A stretch of DNA of 63,923 nt, the filler included, from an uncultured bacterium (GTDB lineage Bacteria; Hinthialibacterota; Hinthialibacteria; Hinthialibacterales; Hinthialibacteraceae), in assembly GCA_964449065.1 (NCBI GenBank). It is 3 parts of 3 records of this genome, joined end to end, with 100 filler letters (N's around TTAATTAATTAA, not from the genome) between each part and the next. Parts side by side here need not be neighbours in the genome. Positions count along the whole stretch, not along the records: positions 1 to 25,370 come from CAYVAZ010000024.1; 2 more parts are not named here. One strand, 5' to 3'. A program made the translations under genes and the position numbers. The notes under the pieces were generated by a model. It did no database searches, was not told the origin of the DNA, and worked only from the letters and a program-made list of their open reading frames with translations. Shown here piece after piece: positions 7,774 to 40,200 of this stretch. Each line of letters starts with the position of its first letter. The stretch's first letter is position 1.

Positions 7774-9207
7774 ATGATGAAACTTCTAAGCAATCTTGGT
7801 TTGGTGTCCATCCTTCTTTCGTTCTGTGTGCTGCGCTCTACTGCGCAAGAAACCTCTGGTAACCCTGTTAAAGACAAAGAGCAGGTTGTCTATGTGCTGC
7901 CCTTTGTTGGCGAAGTGGAATTGGGGTTGGTGCAGGTTTTTCGGCGGGGATTTGAAGCGGCCAAACAGGCCGAAGCGGATCATATCATTATTGAAACCAA
8001 CACTCCCGGCGGGCGTGTGGACGCGGCGCTGGAAATTATCGATTTAATTATGGATACCAAGATCCCGGTTTATATCTACGTCACGGGGGATGCGACCTCT
8101 GCCGGGGCGATTATCAGCATTGCGGCAGACGGAATCTATATGCAGCCGAGCACAACTATCGGGACGGCGGCGCCGGTATTGATGGGGGGCGGCGGCGGGA
8201 ATGAAACCGTCAATGAGAAAGTGCTGTCATACCTATTGGCGAAGGTTCGCAGTTTGTGTGAAGAAAAGGGATATTCGGAAGAAAAAACCGAGATCTTTTT
8301 GGCGATGATCGACTCTAGTAAGAAAATTCCCGACCCGGATGACCCCGAAGAGTTTATTACGACTGAAGGCAGCCTGTTGACGCTGACCAACAACGAAGCC
8401 CTGCAATACGGTATTGCCGATGGAATTCATGAAACCCGGGAGGATTTACTGAAAACGCTTCAACTGGAACATGCGAGAATCGTTACGGTGAGCGAATCCG
8501 ATTTTGAGCGGATCGCGCGCTTTTTTTCCAGCATATCGATCTCGGGATTGTTGATCACCATTGCGGTGATCGGGTTGTATCTTGAATTTCAAACCCCCGG
8601 CTTCGGAATTCCTGGGTTGGTTGGCGTGATTGCGCTGGCATTGTTCTTCTGGGGGCATCTACTGGGGGGGTTAACGGGGTATGAAGGTGTGCTGTTGTTC
8701 GGAATCGGCGTAATCTTGGTGGGCTTGGAATTGTTTATTATCCCCGGTTTTGGATTCACCGGCTTTTTAGGCGTGATTTGCATGTTGACATCAATAGTAA
8801 TCACACTTTTAGACCGTCCAATCACCAGCCCCCATTTTTGGGAAACCTTTGATTGGGCTACCTTTTATCAAGCAACGTTTGTGACGCTGGTTTCAACCCT
8901 TGCAGGGATACTGATGGTGCTGTCGCTGCCCTTTTTCTTGCCGGCGGCATTTCAAACGTCTGCCGGCTCTTGGTTGATGTTGAAGGATACCCAGGACCGA
9001 AAGAAGGGATATCATTCCTCGCAGGACGGTTTAGAAGCGATGCTGGGCAAAGAAGGCGTGACCAAATCAACCCTTCGTCCCGCCGGGATTGCAACGATTG
9101 ACGGGGTTCGGATGGATGTGGTCAGCCAAGGCGGTTTTATTCCAAAAAATACGAATATAAAGGTTGTGAAAGTGGAAGGCCGGCGGGTTGTTGTAAAGCA
9201 AGTATAG
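7774..9207 (+). CDS. Long-form NfeD (ClpP-class protease domain, TM region, OB fold)
   Basis: Signal peptide, NTPGGRVD, ATSAGAII, IGTAAPV, EFQTPGFGIPG, TLRPAG...VKVEGRRVVV. Confidence 0.88.
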   Translation: MMKLLSNLGLVSILLSFCVLRSTAQETSGNPVKDKEQVVYVLPFVGEVELGLVQVFRRGFEAAKQAEADHIIIETNTPGGRVDAALEIIDLIMDTKIPVYIYVTGDATSAGAIISIAADGIYMQPSTTIGTAAPVLMGGGGGNETVNEKVLSYLLAKVRSLCEEKGYSEEKTEIFLAMIDSSKKIPDPDDPEEFITTEGSLLTLTNNEALQYGIADGIHETREDLLKTLQLEHARIVTVSESDFERIARFFSSISISGLLITIAVIGLYLEFQTPGFGIPGLVGVIALALFFWGHLLGGLTGYEGVLLFGIGVILVGLELFIIPGFGFTGFLGVICMLTSIVITLLDRPITSPHFWETFDWATFYQATFVTLVSTLAGILMVLSLPFFLPAAFQTSAGSWLMLKDTQDRKKGYHSSQDGLEAMLGKEGVTKSTLRPAGIATIDGVRMDVVSQGGFIPKNTNIKVVKVEGRRVVVKQV

Positions 9208-9243
9208 CGGCATCGAAATCAGAGCAGGAGGCGAAGCAGCATT

Positions 9244-9720
9244 ATGTGGTTGACCATTATCACGCTTTTGTTGGTCGGGCTAATCTTTATGTGTTTTGAA
9301 CTATTTGTGCCCGGCGGTATTTTAGGGATCATCGGCGTATTTCTGATGGGGTATGGCGTATGGCTGTCGTTTGAACATTACGGATCGGTGCAGGGCTTCG
9401 GCGTATTGATATTTTGCGGCGTGGCTGTGCTGGCCATCATAATTTTTGGGATCAAAGTCCTTCCGCACACATCGTTCGGAAAGCAATTAATATTGGCGGA
9501 CAGTCAGTTAAAAACTTCGGGCTATAATTCGGAATCGTTTGATGAAGCGGCTTTGGTCGGTCAGGAAGGTATAGCGGAGAGCGACTTACGTCCGGCGGGA
9601 ATCGCGAATTTCGGGGATCAACGGCTGGATGTTGTGACAGAAGGCGAATTTGTGGAGGCGCAGCAGCGTGTCAAAATTGTACGGGTTAACGGCAACCGAG
9701 TTGTTGTTGAAACGGTCTAA
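9244..9720 (+). CDS. Short-form NfeD family protein
   Basis: ELFVPGGILG, DLRPAG, DVVTEGEFV, VNGNRVVV. Confidence 0.85.
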   Translation: MWLTIITLLLVGLIFMCFELFVPGGILGIIGVFLMGYGVWLSFEHYGSVQGFGVLIFCGVAVLAIIIFGIKVLPHTSFGKQLILADSQLKTSGYNSESFDEAALVGQEGIAESDLRPAGIANFGDQRLDVVTEGEFVEAQQRVKIVRVNGNRVVVETV

Positions 9721-9742
9721 AATTATCCGCGCAGAGAATCTT

Positions 9743-10462
9743 ATGAAACCGGTTTTATTTCTTCAAAACATTACCCTGGAACCTCCGGGACTTGCGGCAT
9801 CTTTTTTAAAAAAACGGAACATACCATATGAAATCATTGACTTATATATCAATGAGGCCATCCAACATCCTCCCGGTTATTATGGTGCGGTTGTCATTCT
9901 TGGCGGGCCCATGAATGTGGATGATGAAGACAAATATCCTTATTTGCGGGAAGAAAAAGACTTTATTCGCCAATGTTATAAACAGCGTGTCCCAACATTG
10001 GGATTGTGTTTGGGAAGCCAGTTGATGGCCGCCGTTGCGGGAGCGCCGGTACGGAAAAACGAAGTGCCGGAAATCGGATGGATGGAAGTTGAACTAAATG
10101 AAAACGGCCGGGAATGCGTATTGTTTGAAGGGATCGATTCTCCGGTGCCGGTGTTTCAATGGCATGGCGATACGTTCGCGCTTCCAGATGGTGCGACGCA
10201 CTTGGCCTCCTCAAGCAATTGCCGAAACCAGGCTTTTATGATTCATGAGAATTCATTCGGCTTGCAGTTTCACATTGAGGTGAATGAAGAAGACGCGAAA
10301 GAGTGGGCGCTGGCTTATTGGGATGACGTAAGTGATAAGATGAAACCGGAAGTACAAGAATTGATAGATCATCCCAATCAAGCAAAAGCCCAAATAGTCG
10401 CCGCTGTCTCTGAACGGTTGTTTTTTAACTTTTTTTGTAAAGTGGGTAAATACAATGTTTAG
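9743..10462 (+). CDS. Type 1 glutamine amidotransferase
   Basis: LGGPMNV, LGLCLGSQ, FQWHGDTF, GLQFHIE (Cys-His-Glu triad). Confidence 0.9.
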   Translation: MKPVLFLQNITLEPPGLAASFLKKRNIPYEIIDLYINEAIQHPPGYYGAVVILGGPMNVDDEDKYPYLREEKDFIRQCYKQRVPTLGLCLGSQLMAAVAGAPVRKNEVPEIGWMEVELNENGRECVLFEGIDSPVPVFQWHGDTFALPDGATHLASSSNCRNQAFMIHENSFGLQFHIEVNEEDAKEWALAYWDDVSDKMKPEVQELIDHPNQAKAQIVAAVSERLFFNFFCKVGKYNV

Positions 10463-12475: not shown

Positions 12476-13351
12476 ATGGACGTCATTTGCCGTCAGTTGC
12501 GTAAAGTGTATCCCGACGGAACGGAAGCCTTGTCCAACGTTGATTTGGAGATCCGCGCCGGTTTATTGGGATTGCTAGGCCCAAACGGGGCCGGAAAAAC
12601 CACCCTTATGGAAATCCTAACACTGCTTATGGAGCCCACCAGCGGTACCGTTACCATTGGCGGATATGACATTCAAAAACAGGTGCGGCGCATTCGTCCT
12701 TATATCGGATACTTGCCGCAGTTTTTCGGCTACTTTCCGGAATTGACCGCGAAAGAATTTTTATCCTATCTGGGCTCGCTGCGGGGACTGTCGGGAAGGG
12801 AAATTTCACGGCAGGTGAAAGATATCTTGTTTGCCGTGCGCTTGCAGGAAGTGGCAAACCGGAAGTTGAAAACGTATTCGGGCGGAATGCTGCGGCGAGT
12901 CGGCATCGCGCAGGCGCTGCTGGGGGATCCGAAACTGATTGTGGTGGATGAACCGACAGCCGGTCTCGATCCGGAAGAACGGGTGAACTTTCGCAATCTG
13001 CTGTTTGAACTATCGGAAGGAAGAACGGTGATTCTCTCAACCCATATCGTCAAGGATATTGAAGATACCTGTACAAACATGGCCTTAATGTTGAACGGGC
13101 AAATTCATTTCCACGGCAACACAAGTCAGTTTATTCGCTCCGCGCATGAAGATACATGGGAGTTTTGGGGAGACCCGCAGGATATTGAGCGCTATTCAGG
13201 CGGATCGAATTTGGTTTCAATCCGGGAAGATGATCAGGGTGTTTGCTTTCGGATTGTTGCGGATGCCCCGCCGGTTGAGAACGCGCGCCGGGTAGATCCG
13301 AATTTAGAAGACGCGTACGTCCGCTTTCTAGATCGGCAGAAAGCGGCATAA
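12476..13351 (+). CDS. ABC transporter ATP-binding protein
   Basis: GPNGAGKT, YSGGM, VVDEPT, STH, PNLEDAY. Confidence 0.93.
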   Translation: MDVICRQLRKVYPDGTEALSNVDLEIRAGLLGLLGPNGAGKTTLMEILTLLMEPTSGTVTIGGYDIQKQVRRIRPYIGYLPQFFGYFPELTAKEFLSYLGSLRGLSGREISRQVKDILFAVRLQEVANRKLKTYSGGMLRRVGIAQALLGDPKLIVVDEPTAGLDPEERVNFRNLLFELSEGRTVILSTHIVKDIEDTCTNMALMLNGQIHFHGNTSQFIRSAHEDTWEFWGDPQDIERYSGGSNLVSIREDDQGVCFRIVADAPPVENARRVDPNLEDAYVRFLDRQKAA

Positions 13352-13689: not shown

Positions 13690-14589
13690 ATGACACCATC
13701 GCAATCCATAAAACAACGCCCACCCTTTTTTAAGAGGATGACACGGGGAACCGGATCGTTTTTTGCCGGTATACCGGGGGCGCTTTTTGGATTACTGCTG
13801 CTATTGCGGTTGGCGTGGAGTAAGAGTTGTTTAGAAGTCTCGTATTGGTTTCAACTGTTTTTGTATACCTCGCGGAATTTTTTACGGCTGGAAGCAGTGC
13901 TTTCGGTGGCAGGCGCGGTTTTGTTTTTTGGCTATATCATCAACAATGATCTCGCCAAAAACGGCGAACTGCTGATTTATTATTCCTACATTTACTTTTC
14001 CATTGTGATGGTGTTGCTATCGATGAACGTGCTGCCGCGGGAAAAATCGGGCGGCACATTGGAGATATTGTGGAGCCAGCCGTTAAGCCGCAGCGCCATG
14101 ATTGTGGTGCAATTAGTCACTCTTTCGATTTGGATGCTGGCGCTGAATTTGATTTGGTTAATCTTTATTGAGTCTTTTACGGCGTACCCGGAAGGCAAAT
14201 GGATTTTATTGCTTTTGGTGTGGACGACCACGGTTGCCGTGGGCGCGATGACATTGTTTGTTTCAACTTTTTGCCGCCATGCAATCGCGACGGGATTGGT
14301 GAGTCTATTGATATTGGGTCTGCATTTTTATTGGCTGCAAACTTTAGGGCCGGTTCAGTTTTATTTTATTCCCGATAACTTGCCGCAACTCATTACCGGG
14401 CCGGAGACCGCGCAGCAAGGTTTTGGCGGGAGATTCGGCGGCCGGGGTGGATTCGGCGGCAACAACAATTCTCTATTTTCCATTTGGTGGGATGTCATCT
14501 TTAACCGCGTTACCTTGATTGTGACGGTTGGATTTATTTTAGACTTTTTGTTCCGGCGGCTGCGGCGTACGGCGCAGTGGTTTACGTAA
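13690..14589 (+). CDS. ABC-2-type transporter permease
   Basis: About 6 TM segments, REKSGGTLEILWSQP motif; Gly/Arg/Phe-rich loop. Confidence 0.75.
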   Translation: MTPSQSIKQRPPFFKRMTRGTGSFFAGIPGALFGLLLLLRLAWSKSCLEVSYWFQLFLYTSRNFLRLEAVLSVAGAVLFFGYIINNDLAKNGELLIYYSYIYFSIVMVLLSMNVLPREKSGGTLEILWSQPLSRSAMIVVQLVTLSIWMLALNLIWLIFIESFTAYPEGKWILLLLVWTTTVAVGAMTLFVSTFCRHAIATGLVSLLILGLHFYWLQTLGPVQFYFIPDNLPQLITGPETAQQGFGGRFGGRGGFGGNNNSLFSIWWDVIFNRVTLIVTVGFILDFLFRRLRRTAQWFT

Positions 14590-14711: not shown

Positions 14712-17700
14712 GTGAAAGACGAACATACTTCTACACAAAATGAAACGGCACCAAACGAACCGGCACCAAACGATCCGGCGGGGAATGAAGTAACCCCAAG
14801 TGGTCAACGGGGTATGGGTGCGGCGGCGTTTGCCGTGCGGTTTCCGGTAACGATCTCGATGCTGTTTATCGGGATCGTGATGCTGGGCTGGATATCGCTG
14901 AGCAAGTTGCCGACGAACTTGTTCCCGGATTTGCGCGCCCCGCGGATTACGGTGCAGGCCGACGCCCCTGGGCTTGCCCCGCAAGAGATTGAACGGGTGG
15001 TGATTGAAGATTTGGAAGGCCGCGTCGGCACCATTCGCGGGGTGGAAAATGTATCCAGCGTATCACGGTCGGATTCCGGCGCGGTGATTGTTGATTTTGT
15101 CTGGGGCACCGACATGGACTTTGCCATGTTGGAAGTCAAGAAGAACGTGCAAGGCGTCAATATTCCCGAAATCGAAGAAATTAATGAACTGCGGTATGAC
15201 CCGAACGCGCTGCCCATTGTAACGCTGGGCCTAACCGGCGACCGCAGTTTGGAAGATTTGTATTATTTGGCGGACCGGACGGTCGGCCCCGCGCTGGAAC
15301 GGATTGAAGGGGTGGCGCGCGCGCAGATTACCGGCGGGTTGATTCCGGAAGTGCATTGTATCCTCAAGCCGGAGTACCTGCATTTTTATGGATTGACGGT
15401 GAACCAAGTGGCCAATGCGCTGGATCAAGCCAATGTCAGCGCGACCGGCGGAACGTTGAGTGAAGGCAACCAACAGTACGTCATCCGTTCTATCGGTGAA
15501 ATCAAAAAGCCGGAAGAACTGCCGCGCTTGGTTGTGGGGTATTCGGAAAACGCGCCGATTTATTTGGAAGACGTCGGCGAAGTGGTTGTCAGCCATGAAG
15601 AACCGACCAACATCGTCCGGATGAGCCAAAAGGCCGGCGTGGGCATTTCGCTGTACAAAGAGGCGGGATCCAACACCGTTGAAGTGGTAAAGAAAGTCCG
15701 TGAATTTTTGAATATGGAAGATAAAACCCCATCCTTTTTTGAAAAATATCTTGGCTGGACCGGACAGGAATCCGGCGAACGCGGCGGGTTTGGTGGAAGA
15801 GGCGGCCGCGGCGGGTTCGGCGGCGGCCAAGAACGCTTTGATCTGATTCCAGAAGACACACAGATTTCGATTGCGTATGACCAATCGATGTTTATCAACC
15901 GCTCCATCAGCGAAGTAAAAAATACCGCGATTCAAGGGATCATGCTGGCGGCCATTATTTTGCTGGTGTTTTTGCGCAATATCCGCACGACAATCATCGT
16001 CGCGCTGGCGATTCCGGTCTCGATCCTGGCAACATTTAACTTGATGTACTTTATGGATTTGTCGCTCAACATTATGACGCTGGGCGGCTTGGCGCTGGGC
16101 GCCGGCATGTTGGTCGACAACGCGATTGTTGTGATCGAAAACATTTTCCGCCGCAAGCAGATGGGAGATAATCCGAACGATGCCGCGATGAATGGCGCGG
16201 GTGAAGTCGGTTCCGCGATTGCGGCTTCAACGCTGACAACGGTGGTGGTGTTTGTTCCCATTGCCTACATGGGCGGTGTGACGGCGATGCTGTTTAAGGA
16301 ACAGGCGCTGACGGTTGTGTTCTCGCTGTTAACCTCGTTGATCGTGGCGTTGATGATGATTCCCGCGCTGTGCTCGAAGTATTTGAAAGGGCAGGGAATG
16401 AAGACAGTGGATGAAACGCAAAAAGAAGGGATGTATTCGCGTTTCTTACGCTGGACACTGCATCACCGCTTTGTGACGATTGCTATCGTGTTTTTGATTA
16501 CCGCCGCTTCGGTGCCGACGTTTCTCTCAATCAAACAGGAATTTATTCCGCAGGCGGCGGAATCGCAGTTTATCGTAAAGGTGCGCATGCCGCCGGGGAC
16601 AAAATTGGAAACCACCGAAATGGCAGCCCAGGCCATTGAAGGATGGCTGATGCAGGATTTGGGCGCCGATGTGGGCTCTGTTTTTACACGGGTGGGGCCA
16701 AAGCCGGATGACACCGGAGCGATTGAGGAAGACCCGGAAGGGCCCCACACGGCCGAAATCATGGTGAGTATGAAAGAAGGGGCGGCGCTTTCCGTACCGT
16801 CTGTGATTGAGTATTTGGAACCGCGGGCGAAACAAATCCATGGAATGGAAATGAACTATTTGATGTCGCAAACATCGCTATCGACGTTAATCGGTGGAGA
16901 AAAGGCGGCACTGGTGGTTGAAATCAAAGGCCGCAGTTTAGAAACGCTGGGCGAAATCGCGCGGTCGGTCAAAGCGCAGATGGATGGTATACCGACAGTG
17001 GCGAACGTGCGCACCACGATTTTGGAAGGCAACCCCGAAGTGCATTTGATTCCAGACCGGACATTGTTGGCGGAAGCGAATTTGGACCAGCAGCAATTGA
17101 TTGAACTGGTGCAGGCGCAGCTGCGCGGGCAGGTCGCGACCAATTTGCAGGATGAAGATCAAACCAAGGCGATCCGGGTGCAGTTTTCCGAAGACAAAAT
17201 GAATTTGCCGGAACTGCTGGAGACGATTATTCCGATCGGGCAGGAACGGGTTGTCAGTTTAAAGGATTTGGTGGAAGTAAAAGTTGAACCGGGACCACGC
17301 GAGATCCTGCACCGCAACCAAGAGCGGGTTGCCAGAGTGTTGGCCGATGTATCGGAAGGCAGCAAATTGAGCGATGCCGTTGCGGCGGTGCAATCGCAAA
17401 TCGGCGGCATGCAGGTACCGAACGGTTACAGCCTGCGCTTTGGCGGTGAAGAAGAGCGCAGGCGGGAGTCATTCGAGCGGATGAGTTTCGCGCTGATCTT
17501 GGCGCTCATTTTGGTGTATATGGTGATGGCCTCGTTGTTTGAATCGCTCTTGCACCCGTTTGTGATTATGTTCTCGCTGCCCTTGGCGGCGCTGGGTGTG
17601 ATTTGGGCGTTTGCGTTAACAGGGCAAACCCTCAATTTGATGGGATACATCGGAATTATCATGTTGGCGGGAATTGTTGTGAACAATGCCATTGTTTTGA

Positions 17701-18052: not shown

Positions 18053-20803
18053 ATGAGCAAGATATTCAGCATAGCCTGGTATGAAGCGAAAATGAGCAGC
18101 CGCAGCTGGCGGTTTTGGCTGCTGCTCACGTTGATCGCGGGCGTTTCGTGGTTTGCGCGGCAAGACTTTTTGGAAGTGGTGCGCGGCGGAATGTTTGTGC
18201 ATACAGCCTACAGTTTCGCGCACCCCAGTTTCTGGCTCATGTTCAGTGTCATCATGCTGGGGGCGGCCTCGTTGGGGCTTGATATCTGCGGGCGGCTGCG
18301 CAACAACGGGATGGATAAGATTATGTTCCCCCTGCCGTTTTCTTCCATGCAGCTGATGTGGGGACGCTTTTTGGGTGTGCTGTTTATTATGCTCCCCCTC
18401 AGCGCGCTGGGTGTGTTTTCGCTGGCGGTTTGGCATTACTTTTACGGACATGGATTTGTGATCTGGCAGCCGTTTGTGTATGCCTATTTGTATTTAATTT
18501 TGCCCTGCATGATTCCGGTAATTGTAACCGCCATTACCATGCGGACATTTTTTAAGCACGATTTCGCGGCGTTGCTGTTTGGTGCGGTTTTTATGCTTGC
18601 CGTCATGATCGTCGGGCAAAAAACCGGTGTGATTTTGGATGTACCGGAAGTGATGAACCGGCTGCGCGATTCCTCTCCAACGATTGGGGTGCGGCTGAAC
18701 TGGCGCAATCATACCGGCGCGTTTTGGGTGCACGGTTTGTACAGTTTGTTTGTGCTGTATCTGGGACCGCTTTATTTGCGGCGGCAGCAAATCCAAACGT
18801 GGGGCGCGGCGGCAGGCGACCGTTTCGGATTCTCGCGCCTCTTGGGGCATCTCTCGCGCTTTCGGATTGACCGCAATTTAGAGATGTCGTACCGGATTGC
18901 TTTAATCGTGCTGATTGGTGTGTGCACGGTCGGCGGCATTCGCGCGGGTCAGCATTACCAGGACATTTTGGAACAGGAACGGTTGGAAGAATCCTACCAA
19001 CGCATGATTGTGACGGAAACCAACCTCAATATGCCGGTCGATATCGCTTCCTATAAGATTGATATGTTGCCGTTGAAGAAAAACCGCCTGCCGCTTCATG
19101 CCGCGATGCAGTTCGAATTGAAAGGCGATACCGAACAACTGGTCTTTGAATTGGAACCCACATACGAATTGGACAGCGTGGCGTTGAACGGACAAAAGGT
19201 GCCGTTTGAGCGCCGGCTCGACCGGATTTATATTCAATCCCCATCCACAATCCAACCCGAAGATCAAGTGGAAGTGTCGTTTGCCTATGCTTGGAATGAG
19301 CCGCGGATCTCGCATGAATACGGCGTTCTGTTGGGGCGGTGGTATCCCGTGCCGGCGCGGCGGATTCAGGCCAGCGACAATAATCCCTATCTGGACCGCG
19401 AGCAAGATTTGTTTGACGCCGCCGTTACGGTTCATCTTGCCCATGGGCAAAACAGCGTGTTTGCCGGTGAGTTGATTCGGGATGAAGAGACGAACGGCGG
19501 CCGTGTGGAAGAATGGCGGACGAAGTATCCGGTCAATCATCTCGAACTGCGTTGGGGGTTGTACGACAAAGTGACAGTAGCGCGCGATTATTACCGCATC
19601 CACTTTTACCATCTCCCCTATCACGCCTACGAATCGCAAGTGATGCTGGAAGAAGTTCAGGATCAAGAAGAGTATGTGACGGAACGGTTGGGTGTGTTTC
19701 CGTTTGAAGATTTGGTGTTGGTGGAAACCCCCTACGACGAAGATGAATTCACCCATAACCGGTGGTGGAATCAACACGCGACTCCGGAAAACCAGCAGCC
19801 GCGGATGCCGGGGATGATCCGGATGCCGGAAGAGTTGCTTTCCTACATGCACGAAGGGATTTGGAGTTTGGAACGTTTGGATACAGACCCGCGCGAAGTC
19901 CCGTTTTATCAGATGCTGCGTTCAACCGTGTATACCGTGCGGGATTCATTTTATAAAAACTACATCAAAGCCTATTTTGAAGACGCGTTTCATCCGACCG
20001 GGGAACTGGCCTTTTGGCTGGAAGAATATTTGTACAGTTACGCGGCAAAGCTGCTGGAACAAAACCGGTGGGTGCAAAAGCAGGGATTGAATTTCAATAT
20101 CGGGACATCGAAAGACAAACCGGTGCACGCCGCGAAAGAAAAATCACTGGTGGAATTGCACCGTGAAGGTGATTATAAAGAATTGGAACGCGTTCGCGGC
20201 GAAGGGACGCTGCGGATGATTCACCACCTGCTGGGAGATGACGAGTGGTGGGCGGTGATCAAAAATATGTTTGAAGATAACCGCTTCAAAGAAATGCCGG
20301 TGAAAGAGTTGTTTCGCCAAGTGGAAGAACGCTATGGCGAACCGCTGGATTGGTTTGTGGAGCAATGGGTGTATGGAAGCGTGCTGCCGGAGTATCAAGT
20401 GGTGCAGGCGGAAGGCAAAATTTTAGAAGAACAATCCGGCGAAGACGAGTTTCGGGTATATTACGAGGCATCCATCAAAGTCAAAAATCATGGCACCGGG
20501 CGGATGGCGGTGCCGGTTTTTATCGAGACGGAGATGGATTATATTTTCCGCGATCTGTGGCTCGATTCGCAAGACGAACAAACGTTGACGTTAACCATGC
20601 CCAGCCGCCCCTTGTTCGCCACGGTAGACCCGGAAAATTGGGTGGTGAAGACGCCCTATTATGATCCCAATTTGAAGCGCCGAATTAATTCCGAAATGAA
20701 GGTATACATCCCCGGTGATGACCGGAAAAATGTCGGCCGGGGCTTTGAAGAAAGAGGCCGGCGTGGAAGAGGAAGACGCGGCGGGTTCCGTTTTGGATTT
20801 TAG
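18053..20803 (+). CDS. ABC permease fused to M1-aminopeptidase-like domain (probably inactive)
   Basis: N-terminal IAWYEAK plus TM segments; M1-like FPFEDLVLVE, WLEE, LRMIHHLLGD, LDWFVEQWVYG, VDPEN; no HEXXH seen. Confidence 0.75.
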   Translation: MSKIFSIAWYEAKMSSRSWRFWLLLTLIAGVSWFARQDFLEVVRGGMFVHTAYSFAHPSFWLMFSVIMLGAASLGLDICGRLRNNGMDKIMFPLPFSSMQLMWGRFLGVLFIMLPLSALGVFSLAVWHYFYGHGFVIWQPFVYAYLYLILPCMIPVIVTAITMRTFFKHDFAALLFGAVFMLAVMIVGQKTGVILDVPEVMNRLRDSSPTIGVRLNWRNHTGAFWVHGLYSLFVLYLGPLYLRRQQIQTWGAAAGDRFGFSRLLGHLSRFRIDRNLEMSYRIALIVLIGVCTVGGIRAGQHYQDILEQERLEESYQRMIVTETNLNMPVDIASYKIDMLPLKKNRLPLHAAMQFELKGDTEQLVFELEPTYELDSVALNGQKVPFERRLDRIYIQSPSTIQPEDQVEVSFAYAWNEPRISHEYGVLLGRWYPVPARRIQASDNNPYLDREQDLFDAAVTVHLAHGQNSVFAGELIRDEETNGGRVEEWRTKYPVNHLELRWGLYDKVTVARDYYRIHFYHLPYHAYESQVMLEEVQDQEEYVTERLGVFPFEDLVLVETPYDEDEFTHNRWWNQHATPENQQPRMPGMIRMPEELLSYMHEGIWSLERLDTDPREVPFYQMLRSTVYTVRDSFYKNYIKAYFEDAFHPTGELAFWLEEYLYSYAAKLLEQNRWVQKQGLNFNIGTSKDKPVHAAKEKSLVELHREGDYKELERVRGEGTLRMIHHLLGDDEWWAVIKNMFEDNRFKEMPVKELFRQVEERYGEPLDWFVEQWVYGSVLPEYQVVQAEGKILEEQSGEDEFRVYYEASIKVKNHGTGRMAVPVFIETEMDYIFRDLWLDSQDEQTLTLTMPSRPLFATVDPENWVVKTPYYDPNLKRRINSEMKVYIPGDDRKNVGRGFEERGRRGRGRRGGFRFGF

Positions 20804-20862: not shown

Positions 20863-23800
20863 ATGTTTCTATCTGAAGTGGCTGTGAAACGGCCTGTTAC
20901 AACCATGATGTTTTTCGCCGCCATTGTCCTGCTGGGCATCGTATCGGTGATGCGTTTGCCCTTGCAGATGCTGCCGGATATGTCGCCGCCGGTCGGTGGA
21001 TTGCGCGTTTTTACGTATGAAGAATACAGCGCGGAAGAATTTGAACGGAATTTTATTGAACCATTAGAGGGCATTGTTTCGCAAATCCCAAACATAAAAA
21101 ATACCCGTGTATTTAGCGATGGAGAAAACTTCGCCTTTTTCACGCTGGAATTTGAATTCGGGACCAATGTGAAATACCGCGTGGTTGAATTGCAAGACAA
21201 AGCCAATCAGTTTATGCGCGAATTTCCCCGCAACACGATGAATGTGCGCGCGTTTCAATTCGAGACCTCCCGCTTTAATGAAGAGTTTATGGAAGTGGAA
21301 ATTGTTGGACCGCGTTCAGATCCGCACGTGGAAGGGGTTGATATCGAAAAACTACGCCAGCAATTGATTAACATTGATGGGGTAGCCGAAGCGGATTTGT
21401 GGGGCGGACGCGAGCGCACGGTGGATGTGCAAATTATGCAAGACCGGCTGCGCGAGTTTGGGGTTGGGATGTTCAACGTACGCAACACGGTCGAAACCTT
21501 TGCCGGAGAACCGGTCTTTTTGGGAGAAATTGAAGAAGGGAAACAACGCTATTTTGTGCGCTTCGACGGGCAATTTAAAGATACCGGTGAGATTGAAGAT
21601 GTCATTGTAAAAGAGGAGGGCAATATCGCGATCCGGCATTTGGGAGAAGTCAACGATTATTACCGCAGCCGCCGCCAACTCCGGCGCCACAACGGGCAGC
21701 CCTCGATTAACTTGGAATTGGAAAAAGAAGCCGATGTCAATGTGCTCGAACTTTCCAACCGGACGCATGGCGTGATCGCGCAAATCAACTCGGAGTTGCC
21801 GCCTGGATATAATATCATGGTGGAACGCGATCAGGCGGATCAAATCAAAGACATGCTGTGGACTCTTTCGAAGTTGGCGATGATGGGTGTTGTGCTGTCC
21901 ATGTTTGTTCTGTATTTGTTCGTGCGCAATCTCAAAATGACGCTGATTATCTGTGTCGTCATTCCGATCTGCATCGTGGCCACATTTAACTTGATGTACT
22001 TCAGCGGGATGACGATCAACATGCTGACCCTGATGGGCCTGGCGGTAGGCGTCGGTATTTTGATCGACAGTTCGATTGTGGTGCTGGAAAATATCTTCCG
22101 GCATCATGAGCAAGGGAAAAGCGCGATGCACTCAGCAGTAGTCGGCAGCCACGAGGTGGGAATTGCCGTATTCGCTTTGACCTTAACTAACGTGGTGGTC
22201 TTTTTGCCCATCATTTTCATTGAAGGGCAAATTCGGATTATGTTCACCGAAGGGGCGCTGGCCATCATTTATCCCATGTTAATCTCGATGATTGTGGCCC
22301 TTACGCTGATCCCGATGGGCTGCTCAAAAATTCTGCAATTTTCACGAAGAAAAATGCGGGCCAAAACGCTTCCTGCACAAATCGAAGCGGGCAGTTTGGC
22401 GTTCGCCGCCCCTCCTGTCCCGGTTGGGGTTTCTCAGGCTTCTAAACTTTTAACCATGTCGAATATCAAAAAGCAGTACGGCAAAATCCTGAAATCGTGT
22501 TTGCGCCACCGGGTCCGATTGTTTTTAGCCATTGTCATGGTGTGTATGTATACCTATTTCTACAGCATGAGCCGCGTCAATCAGGATGTGCTGGAACCAC
22601 CGCCGGATCATGATTGGTTCCAAGTGTATGTCTATCTGCCGGAAGGAACCAAGCAGGATCACACCATTGAAGTCGTCAACGCGGTAGAAGATATCATTAT
22701 CGAGAATGTGCCGGAGCGGCATCATACCGGTTCGCGGATTGATGAAGATTGGGCGGTCATTTGGACGCGGTTAAAAGACGACCGGGAACGGGAACAGCCG
22801 GAAATCAAGGAAAGCCTGCGTCCGGTTTTTGAAGCCTTTGCAAGCGCGGAGGTGTCGTTTAACCGCCGCAGCCGGGGGGATAATGCCGAACCGCCCGTCG
22901 AAACGGGCCGCAGCGGGATGATTGAAATCCGCGGGCCGGAGTATGGGCAGATTCAAACCATTGCCAATACCTTTATCGAACAGGCCGAAAACGTGCCGGG
23001 CGTGCGCGATGTGCAAAGCCAAACCGAAGGCGGCGCGCTGGAAGTGAACTTTATCCTGGACCGCGAGCGCGCGGCGCACTTGCAGATCACCCCGCAATCG
23101 GTTGCACAGGCCATTCAAAGCGCGCAGCGCCAGGGAGAATCGTCCTCGATTGAAATGAAAAAAGGCGACAGCGAAATCATGATCGTGTTTTCCCAGGTGG
23201 AAGAATTGATTGATATTTCCGAACTGGATAACGCGGATGAGGGACTGAAATTTGATGAACTGCTTCGAATTCCGGTTTTTTCACCCACGGTGGGAGGGAC
23301 GATCAGTTTATCCGAATTGGGGCGGTTTGAAATTCGCCGCGGCATGGGACAGTTGCAGCGGGAAAATCAGGAACGGATCGGCAAGATCGTGTTTGAAACC
23401 GCTCCGGACGCGAACTTTAAAGAAGTCGAAACCGCCATGCAAACACTCATGGATAACTATCCTATCAAGGCGGGCTACCGCATGTCGCTTGGGGGACGCT
23501 CCCGAACGATTGATGAAAATATGCAGGCGTTTACGCAAATGATTTACCTGGCGTTTTTGCTGGTGTATATGTGTATGGCCTCGCTGTTTGAATCGTTTAG
23601 CAAGCCGTTGGTGGTGTTTCTATCGGTGCCGCTCGCGATTGTCGGTATTGTATGGATGTTTATTTTTACGAATACCCCGTTTACGGAAACGGCGGCGCTG
23701 GGTGCGTTGTTCTTGGTGGGGATATTGCCGAACAGCGCGATTTTGCTGGTGCATTATACGAGTTATCTCATCCGCAATTATAACTATCCCCGTGAACGGG

Positions 23801-25161
23801 CGATTATGCGGTCGGGTTACAACCGGCTGCGTCCCATCTTTATGACAGTGATGACAACTTGTTTGGGCATCTTGCCGCTGGCGGTTGATATTCGCGGCAG
23901 TGAAGAATGGACCCCCTTCGCGCGCTGTGTCATCGGCGGCCTTTTAAGCAGCACGGTCTTGACGCTGATTATTGTGCCGGGATTTTATTTTATCGTGGAA
24001 GATTTGATGAAGGGCATTCAGGTCGTCATGCGCTATATCAGCAGCTGGCGCTGGATCTTTGTCTTTTGGAATAAAACAAGCCGGACCGCCTACCGCCAGC
24101 GAATTACCGCTTACCGTCAAAAGCCAACGCCGGATGAGCCGCTGGAAATTGTAGTGGAGTATCTAGTCCGCATTTATCAACCGCCGTTTTTGGAGCGGAT
24201 GCTGGGTAAGATTAAACGAATTTTGTCGATGAATACCTATTCAACGGCGACCGGGTTTATCCCGCAGCCGGTAGCGGCACCATCGGCTCATGCAACGCAA
24301 GCGCGCACCAAAGCGCTGGACGGCATACACGTGAATTTAGGGCCGGGGATTTATGGTCTCTTGGGGCCGAACGGCGCGGGGAAAACCACGTTGCTGCGTC
24401 TCTTAGCGGGAATAGATCAACCCACCCGCGGGTTTTTATCAGTATGCGGATACGACATGAAGACGAACGCGCGGGATATCCAAAAGCTGATCGGATATCT
24501 GCCGCAAGAGTTCGGCGTGTACACTCATTTATCCGCGGAAAAGTATTTGGATTACTTTGCGCTGATGAAGGGAATCAAAACCACGGCCGAACGCAAAAAC
24601 GCTGTGGATGCCGCGCTGGAGATGGTGAATTTGAACGAACAGCGGCATACGCCGGTCGGGCAGTTTTCAGGCGGGATGAAACGGCGCATCGGTTTGGCGC
24701 AAATCTTTGTGAAACCGCCGAAGGTGTTGATTGTGGATGAACCAACAGTTGGGCTGGATCCGATTGAGCGGGTACGCTTTCGCAATTTGCTGGTCAAATT
24801 AAGCCAAGACCGGATTGTGATTTTATCCACCCACATTGTGGATGATGTGGCGCATACCTGCAAAAACGTCGGCGTGATGAACAAAGGACGGCTGCTGTTT
24901 AACGGCAGTACATCCAACTTTGTAGAAACGGTGCAAGGCAAAGTGTGGCAAATGACTGTACCTATTGAAATGACACAAGGCGTGAATCAAGATGAATGGC
25001 GCGCGTTTCGTAAGACCTATCAAATCGTGGGACAGCATCATACCGCGGACGGCATTCATTTGCGGGTGGTTGCCGATGATGCGCCGCGGCCGGATGCGGT
25101 GAACGCGCAGCCGACGCTGGAAGACGCTTATATCTATCATACACATGTAAAAGCACAGTAA
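20863..25161 (+). CDS. RND permease fused to C-terminal ABC ATPase
   Basis: RND motifs LIDSSIVVLENI and RLRPIFMT, then in the same frame GPNGAGKT, FSGGM, IVDEPT, STH, PTLEDAY. Confidence 0.9.
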   Translation: MFLSEVAVKRPVTTMMFFAAIVLLGIVSVMRLPLQMLPDMSPPVGGLRVFTYEEYSAEEFERNFIEPLEGIVSQIPNIKNTRVFSDGENFAFFTLEFEFGTNVKYRVVELQDKANQFMREFPRNTMNVRAFQFETSRFNEEFMEVEIVGPRSDPHVEGVDIEKLRQQLINIDGVAEADLWGGRERTVDVQIMQDRLREFGVGMFNVRNTVETFAGEPVFLGEIEEGKQRYFVRFDGQFKDTGEIEDVIVKEEGNIAIRHLGEVNDYYRSRRQLRRHNGQPSINLELEKEADVNVLELSNRTHGVIAQINSELPPGYNIMVERDQADQIKDMLWTLSKLAMMGVVLSMFVLYLFVRNLKMTLIICVVIPICIVATFNLMYFSGMTINMLTLMGLAVGVGILIDSSIVVLENIFRHHEQGKSAMHSAVVGSHEVGIAVFALTLTNVVVFLPIIFIEGQIRIMFTEGALAIIYPMLISMIVALTLIPMGCSKILQFSRRKMRAKTLPAQIEAGSLAFAAPPVPVGVSQASKLLTMSNIKKQYGKILKSCLRHRVRLFLAIVMVCMYTYFYSMSRVNQDVLEPPPDHDWFQVYVYLPEGTKQDHTIEVVNAVEDIIIENVPERHHTGSRIDEDWAVIWTRLKDDREREQPEIKESLRPVFEAFASAEVSFNRRSRGDNAEPPVETGRSGMIEIRGPEYGQIQTIANTFIEQAENVPGVRDVQSQTEGGALEVNFILDRERAAHLQITPQSVAQAIQSAQRQGESSSIEMKKGDSEIMIVFSQVEELIDISELDNADEGLKFDELLRIPVFSPTVGGTISLSELGRFEIRRGMGQLQRENQERIGKIVFETAPDANFKEVETAMQTLMDNYPIKAGYRMSLGGRSRTIDENMQAFTQMIYLAFLLVYMCMASLFESFSKPLVVFLSVPLAIVGIVWMFIFTNTPFTETAALGALFLVGILPNSAILLVHYTSYLIRNYNYPRERAIMRSGYNRLRPIFMTVMTTCLGILPLAVDIRGSEEWTPFARCVIGGLLSSTVLTLIIVPGFYFIVEDLMKGIQVVMRYISSWRWIFVFWNKTSRTAYRQRITAYRQKPTPDEPLEIVVEYLVRIYQPPFLERMLGKIKRILSMNTYSTATGFIPQPVAAPSAHATQARTKALDGIHVNLGPGIYGLLGPNGAGKTTLLRLLAGIDQPTRGFLSVCGYDMKTNARDIQKLIGYLPQEFGVYTHLSAEKYLDYFALMKGIKTTAERKNAVDAALEMVNLNEQRHTPVGQFSGGMKRRIGLAQIFVKPPKVLIVDEPTVGLDPIERVRFRNLLVKLSQDRIVILSTHIVDDVAHTCKNVGVMNKGRLLFNGSTSNFVETVQGKVWQMTVPIEMTQGVNQDEWRAFRKTYQIVGQHHTADGIHLRVVADDAPRPDAVNAQPTLEDAYIYHTHVKAQ

Positions 25162-34296: not shown

Positions 34297-37200
34297 TTAG
34301 TCTCCTTGTTCATCCGCACCGGTGTTTAGTTTTTCGGTTACGGCATCGATAGATTTTAAAGAAGGTGTGGCATCATCCGTATCAGAATCGTAAAACATAT
34401 AATCCAACGAAAATGGATCGAACAGACTCGACCGTAATTCATTCGGTGATAAATACTGCCGCAAGTCATCCGCCTCCTCACGATTTCCCCACTGAACGGT
34501 CGCGCTTTCTATAAATCCACCGGGAATTTGGGGGGATGTCCAAGGAACATACCACCCATCATACAGTTCCATCGAATCATAGTACCGCTCTTCATTCATT
34601 GATTCCACATAATCCGTTGCCGAATCGATATCCTCTTTCACCTTAATCTCATAGGAGAAATCTTCTTGCCCTTGCGTTGCCTGTTGTGTCTCATCCACGG
34701 CATCACGATCAATCTCTTCCATCCAATTCTCTTCGGCCGGAGAATCCACTTCATCATCAGGCGTGGGATAATCATCCGGAGAAGTATTGATGGGAGGACT
34801 CGCCTTCTCAATCGTATCACCGGACGGAATTTTTTCTTCTTCCGTCACCGGGGGAATCACATCCGCGGGGTCTTCGATGATTGGTGTAATAACAGGCGTA
34901 GGCTCAACCACGTTAGTCGGTGTTTCTGTAGGTACTTCAGTTGCGGTTGCGGATGGGGTTGGCTCCGGCAGTTCTGTTGCTTCTGTTGCTGTCGGCGTAA
35001 GTTCAATCACCGCTGTGGCTGTTGGTGACGGTTCGGGCAAAGGCGTCACCGTCGGCGTCGGTTCCGGTAAGGCGGTCGCGGTAGGCGTTGGTTCTACCCT
35101 TTGCACAAAATCCGGCACGTTCACAACCCGGTGCTGCCCCTTATCGGTGACCAGCAATTGCTGATCGTGGCTGATGTGAATGCCCAGCGGTTCGATAAAC
35201 TCCCTATCGTTCACATCCCGCACCGCTTTGCCCAGCAAGTCACCGGATTGTGAATAGGCATGAACGCTCTTCTCGCGCGGGTCGGTCATGTAAATGATGC
35301 CGTCGGCGCCGCACGCCACATGGCCTTCAAAGCCGCCGGTGCCGTCCCAGCTGCTTTGAATGGGGATGATGGTTTTTAACGCGCCCGTCATGGTATAAAT
35401 TTTGAGCCGTTTGTTCAAACTATCCACCACAACAAAATCGCCGCTGTCTTGGAAAAAGTCGATCCCCACCGGCTCAAGAAACGCGTCATCCCCTTCGCCG
35501 CCGCCCGGCACGCCGATATTGGTTTCTACCCGCCCATTTTGATTCAACACACGCACCAAATGGCTGCCGGTATCGCACACCAATATTCGCCCGGTATAAG
35601 GATGAAAGATAATGCCGCGCGGCCCAAAGAAACTGCCGGCAAACATCCCCAACACATTGCCGTTGTTGTCCATCTTCACCACCCGGTGGTTCCAGGTATC
35701 CGCTATATAGATATCCCCAGTATCCAAATCAATCGAGACATCATTCGGCTCTTTAAACTGGCCGGGGGCGTTCCCTTCCGAGCCAATCTTCCCTTCAAAG
35801 CTGCCATCTTCACGAAACGCCTGCACGCGGTGGTTGCGGGTATCGGCGATATAAAAGTACCCTGCCGCGTCCTGTGCCAATCCGCGCGGCTCGTTAAACA
35901 GGCCATTGGCTTCACCCAATTCACCCTCAAACATGCTTTCGCCCGATATGGTAGGATGCAGGCTTGAAACCTCTGGTAAATCCGCGCGCACTGTCGGGAT
36001 CTGCATATAATCTTCTTCCCCACTCAAGCCGTAAATTCGGTTCAGGCTGTTATCCACCTTAAAGATGGATTGATCGCCCAAGCGGTACACCAAGCGGAAC
36101 ACATCGCCCCATTCTTCAAAACGGTTGAGCGAGGCCACACCCAGCGGTTCTTCGCTATCGCGGTGTCCCCGCCGGTGATTCTTTTCAATATCGCCGAAAA
36201 TGACATATTCGATGTTGTATTTCGCTAGGATATCGATTACTTCTTTCTTGTTGGGCGATTCATAAACGCGGTACACCGCATTGCGCCGCGGCTCTTTTTC
36301 ATCCATGTGCATGCGTTCGCCCACATGATGTTCCCAACCAAGAAGGGAAGGCAGTCCGGTATTGGTCGAGAAGCGCGCGATATCCAAATATCCTTTATGG
36401 TGATCGACATACTCTACTATATTCGGTGTTCCTTTAACATAGCGGTTCATCCACTGAATGCCCGCGTAGCTGTCATATTTCTGCTCACGAAGCCACGCCA
36501 AACCATCCAGCGTCGGCACATCGGCCCCGCGAACATCCCGCCATTTCCCGCCGCTGGTTTGGGTAACGATGTACGGCCCCAAAACCGCAAAGGGCACCGT
36601 CATAAGCACCAACACAACAAACGCCAAGCCGAACATAAACTGCGATCCCGCCGATAGAATCGAACCGATGGAAATCCGCAACTCCTTTAACTTATATAAC
36701 GCAAAGATGAATCCAAACACGGCAAAGACTGATAGATAATGCCAGATTTGAATGTTGAATTTAAACAGCGTGTTATAACGGTGCGAGGGGCGGGTCCATC
36801 CTTCTTTGATATAAAACCATTCGATCCCCAGCGCCAATCCCAAGCCGATAATGCCAACCAAAAAACCGAACACTTGCTCGCCAGTCAGTTTGCGGTTCCA
36901 AAGTTGGATGAACATCACCACCAAGAACGGAAAGAACAACCCGAACACGGTTAAATCAAATTGGGGATCGGTTGGGCTTAGCGTATTCGGGATGGAAATA
37001 CTGCCCAACAAGGGGATCGAAAACTCGTTCAGTGAATCGTTTCTGACCGCATTGGTGACGTAAAAGCATCCCCCCAACACGGCAAGATAAAAGATGGCAA
37101 AGACTATTGTTCGTATGATGGACAACTTCTTATCCGCCCGGACAATGGCGGAAAGGATCACAGCCACCGCCAGCGTAAACAACATCACACCCCAAAAGCC

Positions 37201-40200
37201 TAAAAATGTCGTCAGCGGGGCATGGCCTTCCGTCATCACGCCGATACCGGTCACACGGGCAATGAAGTTCGCGTGGAAGGGATAAAACATCGCCATCTGC
37301 AAGACAAACACCAAAACCAACAATCCAATCGGGAACCACAACCACTTTTGCAGCGTATCGGTATCCAGCCATTCGGCTTTTTTAAACGTCGATACCACAT
37401 TATCCGATTCGCGGTACCATTTCACCAACACACCAACTAACAGAATAATCATCAGCGCCGGCATATCCCAAGTATTGGTGCAGATTACGGTTCCCAGAAG
37501 CAATGCCAAAAAGACGCTGTATCCAATCAGCGAAGTAGTCTTCCATTCTTTATGTGGTTTTAAAAACAACGCCAACAACAGCGTAATAAACGCCCAGGTG
37601 AATGGAATCACCAGCATGTGGGCGTGAAAATCCAAGAACAAATGCATCCAATAGGGGAACTCATTCGCCGCCGTCCCCTGATACAAATCATGCCCAACCC
37701 GCCAAAACAGGATCTCATAATTGATCCGCGCCAACTCCTGCTTCATCGCGTCGGTTGCAAACCCCAAATAATAGAGAACGGCATACCAACATATTAATAA
37801 TGTAGCGGGCACAGCCTTGATGATATCCCACAACGTAAGGTCGGCGCTCCACTGGTACCAAAATTCCGAAATCGCCCGATCCATGGCAAAAGCGGATATT
37901 TGAATAAATGAAATAATGTGCCCGGCAAAGACGGCAAGATACGCGGCAATGGCCGCCATATATTTACAGCGGCACAACGCGTATGCCAACGAGAAGATGC
38001 TGATGGCAACCAACCCCGCGATGGAGGTTCCGGCGACGTTAAAGAAGTATTCCGGCGGGATGCTCATAAAACGCCCCGCGATCGACAACACCGCATGGCC
38101 GTAATAATAATAGTTGATGAGATGCCCCGATATCCACGGGTCTTCCGGCGGGAAAGTGAGCGTGCGGTAGACCGCGTTCACAAACGAAAAGTTCATCGGC
38201 TTTTCACCCCAACTAATACCGGGGTGATACATGCGGATCAGCAAAAAGACCGCCCACACCGCGATAAACATCACTTCGATACTCAGCAGCAACCGCCAGC
38301 GCGCGCGGATAAATTCCAGACACTCCTGCCCGCAGCGCTGCCACACCAAGGCCGCCAGCACAATCATTCCAAACAGCACAAACCACATCGATGCCTGTGA
38401 AAGCAATATGATTTCGTTCGAAGCCAAGAACCATGCCAGCCACGAGAAGAACGCCAAACCGATGGTTTTCGATACCGCGTATCCGCCATCCGGCAAACGC
38501 TGCATCAGCGGGAAGAGAAACACAAACGCCAACGCCCCCAACGCGAACAGCATCACATACCAACGCAATACCGGAGCCCAAACCGGTTTGGCAAACACCG
38601 GCTTGCCATCCCGCAGCGTCAAGATTTCTTCTTTAGTGATCTCATTCACCCAGGCCGGTGGATTTAAAATCAATTCTTCGATCTGTTGACCGGAAAGCTG
38701 TTGGAACTTTTCTAAAATAATCACCTTGGGATGATCATAAATCCTGGCGGTCTCGTCTTCTTCATCCACATAAAAATGAATCCCCATAAACTGCACGGGG
38801 TTCTCAATCACCTTCAGCACCCGAAAGCCCAGCTGCTCGGCAAACAGCGCCCGCAAAAATTTATTGGTAAGGGGATACTGCTCGGGATTTTCAAACGTGG
38901 TGCCATACGCGCGTTTGCTGGGGAACACGATGTAATCAAACTCTTGCAGCTTTCCGGTGAAGTATTGTATTCGCTGCGATGGGTTCCGGTCGCTTCCGGA
39001 ATGGATATACAACTGATCATCCCGTTCAATGTGGATGCCAAATCCTTCATCCCAATCGTTCTGGGTGATTTTTTGCCCCGGTTTCATGTGCTGCTTCAAA
39101 AAGTCTTCTGTTGTTTTAAGCGTATGAGGATGTTGATACATCGCGGTATAAGCGTTGCCGTAAATCAACCCAAAGAGCAATGCCGCAAAGCCGCCGGCCC
39201 ACCCCAGGCCTTTCAACGCTTTGCGCGTATTCAAATCCAAGAAAGGCAGCGCGTTGATTTTCTCCCGCACTTGGATCCGGCAAAGCGTTACGATCAAACG
39301 CGCTCCCAGCACAATCATCACCGGCAGCACGGGTACAATATACCGCGGAAATTTGCTATCCAGCGAACTGTAAACCACAAATGCCGGAATCGCCCACGCA
39401 ACCAAAAACAGGTCGGATTTACACTTCACATGCAGCAGCCGGAACGCCGCGAACAAACAGCCCGCCAATACAAAAAACGCGGTGACATAATCCAGCGATG
39501 GGTAAAACAGATTATTCAATAGCGTTAACACCGGCAGCGTGTTGTTGAATTGTTTTGTATAAATCATATTCGCTTCACCGGTGGCATTGATTCGGCTTAC
39601 TTCGTTGATATCACGGGCAAAGGCATGCGAATCAAAATACGCCATCGGCTGCGCGAACAAAAACGCCCCCCATCCAACAGCCACCGCGACCACCAGCCAC
39701 ACCCAGGGCAAATAAATTTGAAAACACCCTTTAAAGAAACCGGGTTGATTGAGTTGTTTCTTTCGGATAAACAAAAACACCAGCGTGGCCACTATCAAAA
39801 CGCCAACGGCCGCTGCTAGGGCTATCCAATTGTTAACATAAAAATCGCGGAACCGCGCCAGTGTGATATGAAACAGAGGATCAGCCGAACGCGCCGCTTG
39901 GAAAAACTGCACCAACACCAACGCGGAAACCATCAGCCAAAACACATGAATCAAGCGCCCGTCTTTGCCGTGGCGGTCATCGCTCCAGGTAGCAATCGCG
40001 TGCGCGAACCACAGCATGGCGGGCAAGAGGATGGCGCTCCACTTTGTCCCCACCGCAAAGCCGGTACACACCGCTCCCAGAACATACCAAATCAAGCGCG
40101 GCTTTTGCGATATCTTTAAAAAGAAATAAATCGCGGCGGTCACCCAAAACGCGGCGATGCCATCGACGGTCGCGAAATGGCTGGTTTGAATGTGCAGCAT

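Follow-up and report, generated by a model that had tools for sequence, protein, structure and literature searches.

Proton-driven resistance-nodulation-division (RND) transporters and ATP-driven ATP-binding cassette (ABC) exporters are treated as alternative engines for tripartite pumps. In MacAB-TolC the MacB ATPase is fused to an inner-membrane transporter, which works with an adaptor and a TolC-like channel; MacB has a membrane fold of its own and carries its nucleotide-binding domain (NBD) at the N-terminus. Here we describe an operon within a stretch of 63,923 nucleotides (the window) from an uncultured bacterium of the Hinthialibacterota (GenBank assembly GCA_964449065.1), in which an RND permease, RND2, is fused in frame to an ABC ATPase, NBD2. 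The operon lies on contig C24, which accounts for positions 1–25370 of the window only; a run of Ns and a short spacer follow from 25371, and the remainder is not contiguous with the operon.

The B2C stoichiometry of the RND pair MdtBC has been confirmed (PMC7015380), and relay mutations in MdtB hurt MdtB2C more than those in MdtC, such that the subunits depend unequally on the relay (PMC4338810). Export of phthiocerol dimycocerosate (PDIM) requires the RND protein MmpL7 together with DrrABC, a type V ABC exporter whose two membrane subunits differ (PMC11539658), and MmpL7 has no canonical relay (PMC8427324). By analogy, MmpL7 with DrrABC is the closest functional precedent for the system described here.

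The fusion is real, old and widely conserved, and the fused ATPase probably contributes half of the motor to a type V ABC exporter (NBD1, NBD2 and two membrane domains, TMD1 and TMD2) that is moored to a heterotrimer of RND2 and its unfused partner, RND1. A literature search, with most subscription journals outside its reach, found no description of the fusion or the operon, and database protein names already reflect both domains; what we add is the lineage with the short tether, a control on the relay residues, an M1 domain that is catalytically incomplete and a comparison with MmpL7/DrrABC.

Architecture and conservation of the fusion gene

The initial annotation described a continuous 1432-residue open frame with full ABC motifs, and this reading holds. 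The frame from 20863 to 25161 has no internal stop, and Pfam matches ACR_tran at residues 4–1045 (E 9e-172, 573.6 bits, profile positions 2–1020 of 1021) and ABC_tran at residues 1155–1295 (E 2e-28). All six ABC motifs are present: Walker A (GPNGAGKTT, residue 1168), the Q-loop (Q1215), the signature (FSGGM, 1268), Walker B (LIVDE, 1289), the D-loop and the H-loop (H1324). Homologues were sought with a search scored on residues 880–1432, which includes the NBD and so favours fused forms; among the best 120 of the 5256 passing, Walker A, the Walker B glutamate and the H-loop are kept in all 120, the Q-loop in 118, the D-loop in 117 and the signature in 116. The fused ATPase looks active, which would tie ATP hydrolysis physically to an RND subunit. 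A small group of fusions (P0039–P0042) has altered signature motifs, three of them also with altered D-loops; an asymmetric pair of NBDs could tolerate such changes in one of its two sites.

An AlphaFold2 model of residues 320–1432 (84 sequences; predicted local distance difference test, pLDDT, 84.6; predicted template-modelling score, pTM, 0.64), which speaks to the fold and not to the placement of the NBD, resembles AdeB/AcrB in structure comparison (E 1e-30). In this model transmembrane helix 12 (TM12) continues into helices to residue 1083, followed by a strand (1096–1103), a helix (1109–1125), a low-confidence loop to residue 1147 and further strands before Walker A. The NBD begins at about residue 1096, and an insert of about 46 residues, not seen in the initial annotation, parts its first strand from Walker A; the start is placed upstream of the insert because the tyrosine ending this strand is kept in 119 of the 120 listed homologues. 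The insert helix (1109–1125) is strongly amphipathic, with a moment of 0.78–0.80. The distance from TM11 to Walker A ranges from 174 to 355 residues among the listed homologues, being less than 240 in 54 of them and 290–355 in the other 66. The long-tether forms have extra hydrophobic segments both ahead of the first NBD strand and inside the insert, and the window protein is a short-tether form.

ACR_tran (PF00873) and ABC_tran (PF00005) occur together in all 120 homologues listed by this fusion-favouring search, the sources of which include Candidatus Omnitrophota, Ca. Hinthialibacter, KSB1, Latescibacterota, Krumholzibacteria, Aminicenantes and Bacteroidota, with Plebeiibacterium sediminum (P0099) as a named-species carrier. 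Whole-genome matches are present in 23 of 25 other genomes of the same order, in none of nine elsewhere in the class and in none of six further out, and no stop interrupts any of the 25 matches that span the junction (24 genomes, this one included). Contigs from two runs of one study cover positions 23900–24399 at depths of 5.9 and 5.5 with no indel listed; because this coverage is by contigs in place of reads, and the source sample may itself be among the two runs, it lends the junction weak support. An even sample of Bacteroidota has the fusion in 2 of 201 genomes, one being the query's own (six candidates scored per genome). A search with the RND domain only, free of the bias to fusions, gave 150 representatives, 20 with an NBD, and its eight best matches are all fused. 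Moreover, all 24 fused proteins in a FastTree phylogeny of 167 RND domains fall in one clade of 28 (Shimodaira-Hasegawa support, SH, 1.0), and the covalent link seems to have a single origin and to have persisted in several phyla.

Other scans returned little: a genome scan was dominated by generic ATPase patterns, with fusions at 2 of 80 loci, a viral scan for the fusion was empty, and an Atlas search gave ABC clusters only, one of them also with ACR_tran. We also note four related RND proteins (P0205, P0280, P0289 and P0298) with C-terminal outer-membrane efflux (OEP) domains in place of the ATPase.

The operon and the origin of the fused ATPase

The order adaptor, free ATPase, ABC-2 permease, RND1, TMD2, fusion, outer-membrane factor (Table 1) is found in 13 of 14 relative loci, which were fetched from a total of 25 and picked for long contigs. 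Three Bacteroidota loci have the same seven genes in a different order, and a third lineage has six genes with no outer-membrane gene downstream (L154 complete; L152, L157, L159 and L161 partial). What stays constant is a pair each of ATPases, ABC-2 membrane domains and RNDs with a single adaptor, usually joined by one outer-membrane factor, and both permeases and NBD1 accompany the fusion in 18 of the 19 loci having enough flank. The assignment of two ABC-2-type membrane domains alongside two NBDs is by Pfam cut-off for TMD1, and by orthologues and profile comparison for TMD2. TMD1 has a motif, RE..GTLEIL..QP, that is conserved in 50 sequences and resembles a coupling helix. RND1 is the best-conserved gene of the operon, with a mean identity of 65% over 13 operons versus 53% for RND2.

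TMD2 of the window has no Pfam match, and its orthologues match ABC2_membrane and Peptidase_M1. Its profile matches M1 peptidases of known structure (best E 5e-11), it shares homology with TMD1 at the N-terminus, and it is collinear over 703 columns (96% probability) with a 1189-residue ABC-2 permease/M1 aminopeptidase fusion that adjoins an ABC ATPase at another locus (L052:9896-14413). That fusion has an intact HEXXH motif (HEMAH), whereas HEXXH is present in none of 36 aligned proteins with the operon's M1-like domain; this domain is therefore probably no enzyme, and we reject an active peptidase in TMD2. The TMD2 proteins of Bacteroidota (L045:896-4231, L049:1114-4629 and L148:3082-6357) have an extra C-terminal Golvesin_C domain.

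In a FastTree phylogeny of 122 NBDs, midpoint-rooted and with weak inner branches, the 28 fused NBDs form one clade (SH 0.99). This lies within a group (0.80) that also holds the 17 free operon ATPases, two others and the ATPase adjoining the ABC-2/M1 fusion; a further 67 ATPases fall outside the group. The resemblance of the fused NBD to the stand-alone ATPase at 12476, pointed out in the initial annotation, is the closest in the genome (41%, the next being 28–36%). Conservation just beyond the Q-loop equals that in free NBDs (F in 120, G in 115, Y in 114 and L in 119 of the 120 listed homologues), and this stretch may correspond to the permease-binding groove. From these comparisons we infer that the fused NBD descends from ATPases of ABC-2 permeases, with an ATPase and ABC-2/M1 module of the L052 type as the probable source; a literature search on this module found no paper. 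A complex prediction of the fused NBD with TMD1 and TMD2, made with alignments, scored 0.02 against a mark of 0.32 and was counted neither for nor against binding.

The gene for the outer-membrane factor is not in the window; it is located at the start of C390, another contig of this genome, and from the gene order in 13 relatives we infer that C24 and C390 are adjacent. A common repeat is present at the two contig ends; BLAST with the copy that ends C24 gives 192 matches in this genome, of which 79 are close to a contig end, and members of this palindromic family are located between operon genes and at contig ends (13351–13690, 25270–25370, 10462–10870 and the start of L151). A promoter and terminator scan was at chance level (10 versus 15.6 and 27 versus 20.7). 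Segments rich in glycine, arginine and phenylalanine occur in TMD1, RND1 and the TMD2 tail (about 14420–14470, 15780–15830 and 20760–20800) and recur in several orthologues; GG[RF]GG is found in 14 of 2767 long frames of the genome, two of them within the operon. Ahead of the operon, at 7774–10462, are two NfeD-like genes and a class I glutamine amidotransferase gene, the latter also being upstream of the adaptor in 7 of the 14 relative loci. No biosynthesis gene was recognised beside the operon in the window or the relative loci. On another contig of the window (34297–40983, minus strand) is a gene for a 2228-residue multi-pass membrane protein, the C-terminal parts of which are repeat-like and rich in proline and threonine.

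Table 1. Coordinates of the operon, of the parts of the fusion gene and of associated features; positions are those of the window unless a locus is named.
Feature	Position	Strand	Evidence or remarks
Periplasmic adaptor (membrane fusion protein), 511 aa	10871..12406	+	HlyD_D23 E 4e-22; TIGR01730 RND_mfp 167 bits vs cut-off 95; lipobox-like LSGC (by eye)
Free ABC ATPase NBD1, 291 aa, DrrA/GldA-like	12476..13351	+	ABC_tran; best NCBIfam drrA, GldA, both below cut-off
ABC-2 (type V) permease TMD1, 299 aa	13690..14589	+	ABC2_membrane_2 32.8 bits vs cut-off 27.2
RND1, unfused partner permease, 1107 aa	14712..18035	+	ACR_tran E 5e-235; relay DN/NN
TMD2, ABC-2-type membrane domain + M1-aminopeptidase-like domain, 916 aa	18053..20803	+	longest open frame from 17975
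RND2-NBD2 fusion, 1432 aa	20863..25161	+	single open frame, no internal stop
RND permease body, residues 4-1045	20872..23997	+	ACR_tran; model match to AdeB/AcrB
TM4 relay IDSS	22063..22074	+	D402 (AcrB D407 position) kept; S403 at D408 position
TM10 LPNS	23725..23736	+	N957 at K940 position, shared across the clade; P956 and S958 characteristic of the fused subunit in this lineage
Cytoplasmic tether after TM12, residues 1046-1095	23998..24147	+	predicted helical; WRW motif
First NBD strand and A-loop-like Tyr1105	24148..24177	+	predicted strand 1096-1103; A-loop label inferred
Insert within NBD	24178..24315	+	amphipathic helix 1109-1125 and low-confidence loop; longer and hydrophobic in ~1570-aa forms
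ABC ATPase core and C-terminal domain	24316..25158	+	Walker A 24364-24390; signature 24664-24678; Walker B 24727-24741; H-loop 24832-24834
Dispersed palindromic repeat at contig end	25270..25370	.	
Outer-membrane factor gene, outside window	L151:2335-3945	minus	start of contig C390, same genome

Relay residues, energy source and mode of action

Relay positions are given in AcrB numbering (D407, D408, E414, K940, R971 and T978, from PMC8277102). Relative to the AcrB triad D407, D408 and K940, the window fusion keeps the first (D402) and has S403 and N957 at the other two positions; E409, R988 and T995 are the equivalents of E414, R971 and T978. The labels A939, N941 and E947 also refer to AcrB positions. 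The motifs reported in the initial annotation, IDSS in TM4 and LPNS in TM10, line up in PDB alignments with the DD and K-N that MdtB and AdeB have, and its VDNA/VNNA for RND1 (denoted DN/NN) is found in the window and in all 15 orthologues aligned (16 copies). Among the fused proteins the equivalents of D407 (105/107), E414 (107/107), R971 (120/120) and T978 (120/120) are kept, and the second aspartate (0/107) and the lysine (0/120) are absent throughout.

A control set is provided by the unfused members of the RND-only search, of which 128 of the 150 representatives, each of at least 880 residues, were aligned (two fragments were dropped); they were chosen by sequence and not by gene context, and a few of them group with RND1 or the fused clade. 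DN/NN is the state of 79 of these 128, the second aspartate being present in 17, the lysine in six and DD/KN in six, and the fused representatives in the same set are DN/NN in 15 of 20. Only the further drift in TM10, at P956, S958 and H964 of the window RND2, is specific to this clade. Stand-alone pumps tell the same story: seven RNDs fetched from the best of 1021 plasmid-collection matches, none of them fused, comprise four DN/NN, one DF/NN and two DD/KN. The DN/NN pump of Cetobacterium belongs to a plain TolC-adaptor-RND trio with no ABC gene annotated in 15 kb; elsewhere the neighbours include a zinc ABC importer upstream in Ilyobacter and a divergent ABC pair in Pontibacillus, two records being without annotation. 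Because the missing aspartate and lysine are shared far beyond the fusion, the odd relay is no sign of ATP drive, and we reject it as evidence for this. The suggestion that ATP energises or gates the RND permease thus keeps its support from a conserved fusion and an ATPase that looks active, and loses the argument from the relay.

What follows on binding, stoichiometry, energy source and cargo is drawn from gene content, domains, motifs and conservation. ABC ATPases act as dimers on two membrane domains, and AcrB-type RNDs act as trimers. One fused subunit per trimer together with a free NBD would fit both rules, and a threefold ring of NBDs would not; the two ABC-2 permeases, which the initial annotation had not weighed, are natural partners for the two ATPases; and a tether that varies in length from 174 to 355 residues, with extra hydrophobic segments, fits a mooring better than a rigid lever. 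We propose that NBD2 would pair with the free NBD1 and dock on a heterodimer of TMD1 and TMD2 to make up a single type V ABC exporter, and that RND1 and RND2 would form a heterotrimer like MdtB2C, the fusion mooring one ABC exporter to each RND-adaptor-channel assembly. The ABC part, powered by ATP, would extract or move cargo from the inner membrane; binding the cargo and passing it on would fall to the M1-like domain, which lacks its catalytic motif. Expulsion through the outer membrane would then be the task of the RND part, still coupled to protons by a relay with one aspartate, chiefly that of RND1, and RND2 would have specialised as the tether. The cargo, we guess, is a lipid-linked or peptide-like envelope molecule. 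In its entirety this hybrid envelope exporter, a two-energy relay in which a proton-coupled RND1/RND2 pump carries a tethered type V ABC exporter, is an evenly balanced proposition.

Several observations weigh against the hybrid. In both the RND and the NBD tree, support at the deep nodes is moderate and was computed by FastTree alone. Inside the fused RND clade are four proteins that lack an NBD: a fragment, a pair (P0198 and P0199) that stop inside the tether, perhaps by truncation, and one whose tail differs. Scanning metagenomes with P0198 gave no match. A second fusion copy of 1424 residues (L041:9661-13935, on G020:C97) has no operon partner on its 28-kb contig; its genome also holds a full operon, and a putative ABC exporter gene is located 5 kb upstream of the lone fusion on the other strand. 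The TM10 drift in this lineage's RND2, where 42 of 120 fused proteins have Pro, 41 have Ser and 37 have His, also fits a loss of coupling, and replacing D407, D408, K940 or R971 of AcrB abolishes extrusion (PMC8277102). Finally, since we found no literature test of proton use by DN/NN pumps, and the FemT preprint yielded nothing on the relay, the proton-coupled RND step is argued from conservation.

The strongest alternative, and still a rather unlikely one, is that ATP is the sole energy source of the tethered exporter, in which case the ABC part would load or push an RND pair that is itself a scaffold or a passive conduit. The complete absence of the second aspartate and the lysine from the fused proteins would agree with this, as would the TM10 proline of this lineage's RND2, given that MmpL7 too has a conserved TM10 proline and no relay (PMC8427324); the DrrABC authors propose MmpL7 as a scaffold, without direct evidence (PMC11539658). 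However, DN/NN is common to the majority of the unfused relatives and to stand-alone pumps such as the Cetobacterium trio, and the D407, E414, R971 and T978 equivalents are nearly invariant, unlike in MmpL7.

Direct drive, as in the initial annotation, is less likely: here NBD2, alone or with NBD1, would drive or gate the RND transmembrane domain and the permeases would be accessory. The single apparent origin of the covalent link and its retention across several phyla, the intact catalytic motifs, the lone fusion at L041 and the further relay drift in this lineage's RND2 are all in keeping with such a machine, but both permeases travel with the fusion in nearly all loci with enough flank, the NBD descends from ATPases of ABC-2 permeases, tether length varies twofold, and most fused proteins share the relay state of their unfused relatives, so that we consider it improbable. 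In broader terms, an RND-fold trans-envelope exporter run on ATP, its motor acting through its own permeases or directly on an AcrB-like trimer without proton coupling, a state furthest advanced in this lineage, is a tangible possibility that falls short of being probable.

More improbable again is a sensor or regulator, in which the peptidase-like domain would bind an outside ligand and ATP turnover would switch a proton-driven RND pump on or off. An M1-like domain without HEXXH suits a binding role, and the altered signature motifs of four of the 120 fused NBDs, with altered D-loops in three, are in keeping with it; against this, no conserved regulator gene was recognised beside the operon in the loci read, among neighbours that were screened only against the operon's own proteins, and the type V relatives described in PMC11539658 are exporters. 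An assembly artefact or one-off stop-codon loss, to which a metagenomic contig of low depth might lend itself, is rejected as vanishingly improbable, as all 120 listed homologues are fused, all 25 genome matches are open across the junction, and the first NBD strand, upstream of the insert, is conserved.

In this operon selection has retained an RND and an ABC engine side by side, covalently joined, across several phyla, in a system of fixed stoichiometry in which cargo hand-over and energy coupling are testable. The short-tether form in the window is the simplest version to express and to solve structurally. If the ATP-run reading were true instead, this would be the first ATP-energised AcrB-type machine, and its covalently locked form would open the proposed RND-ABC coupling of MmpL7/DrrABC to testing. 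The relay control also raises the wider question of how a large RND clade without two of the three AcrB relay residues is powered.

Comparison with known systems

MmpL7/DrrABC likewise combines an RND protein with a non-canonical relay and a type V ABC exporter in one cluster, a lipid biosynthesis cluster, both being required (PMC11539658 and PMC8427324), and drrA is the best NCBIfam match of both operon NBDs, below cut-off. It differs in that its MmpL-type RND has no relay at all, its proteins are separate with contact unproven, it has a single DrrA homodimer, and there is no adaptor or TolC-like channel; in the fusion the link is covalent, and the RND is AcrB-like, matching ACR_tran, with D402 and R988 kept. 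The L052 module shares with the operon an ATPase that groups with NBD1 and NBD2, and the second half of its permease is collinear with TMD2. Its permease keeps HEXXH and there is no RND, whereas the operon has no HEXXH and splits the membrane part over two genes.

The presence of two RND paralogues and one adaptor is shared with MdtABC-TolC (E. coli MdtB2C) and MuxABC-OpmB, and MdtB (9lyq) is the best PDB sequence match of both RND1 and RND2, although the homology is distant (E 2e-69). By analogy the fusion pump may work like MdtB2C. MdtB, however, has DD and K-N where the operon RNDs have DN/NN and DS/NS, and MdtABC has neither an ABC component nor a fused ATPase. Membership of MdtABC is rejected, with NCBIfam MdtB/MdtC models giving RND2 321 bits versus a cut-off of 1774 and 275 versus 1584, and RND1 441 and 405 bits.

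AcrAB-TolC and the other HAE-1 RND pumps share the fold, the adaptor and the outer-membrane factor, and the D407, E414, R971 and T978 equivalents are kept; the fusion differs in lacking those of D408 and K940 and in having a C-terminal ATPase. The fusion is also distinct from MacAB-TolC, its NBD being C-terminal and on an RND fold. By sequence, then, this is an RND permease joined to an ABC ATPase; by the relay triad it is no AcrB-type pump, and by NCBIfam cut-offs no MdtABC orthologue.

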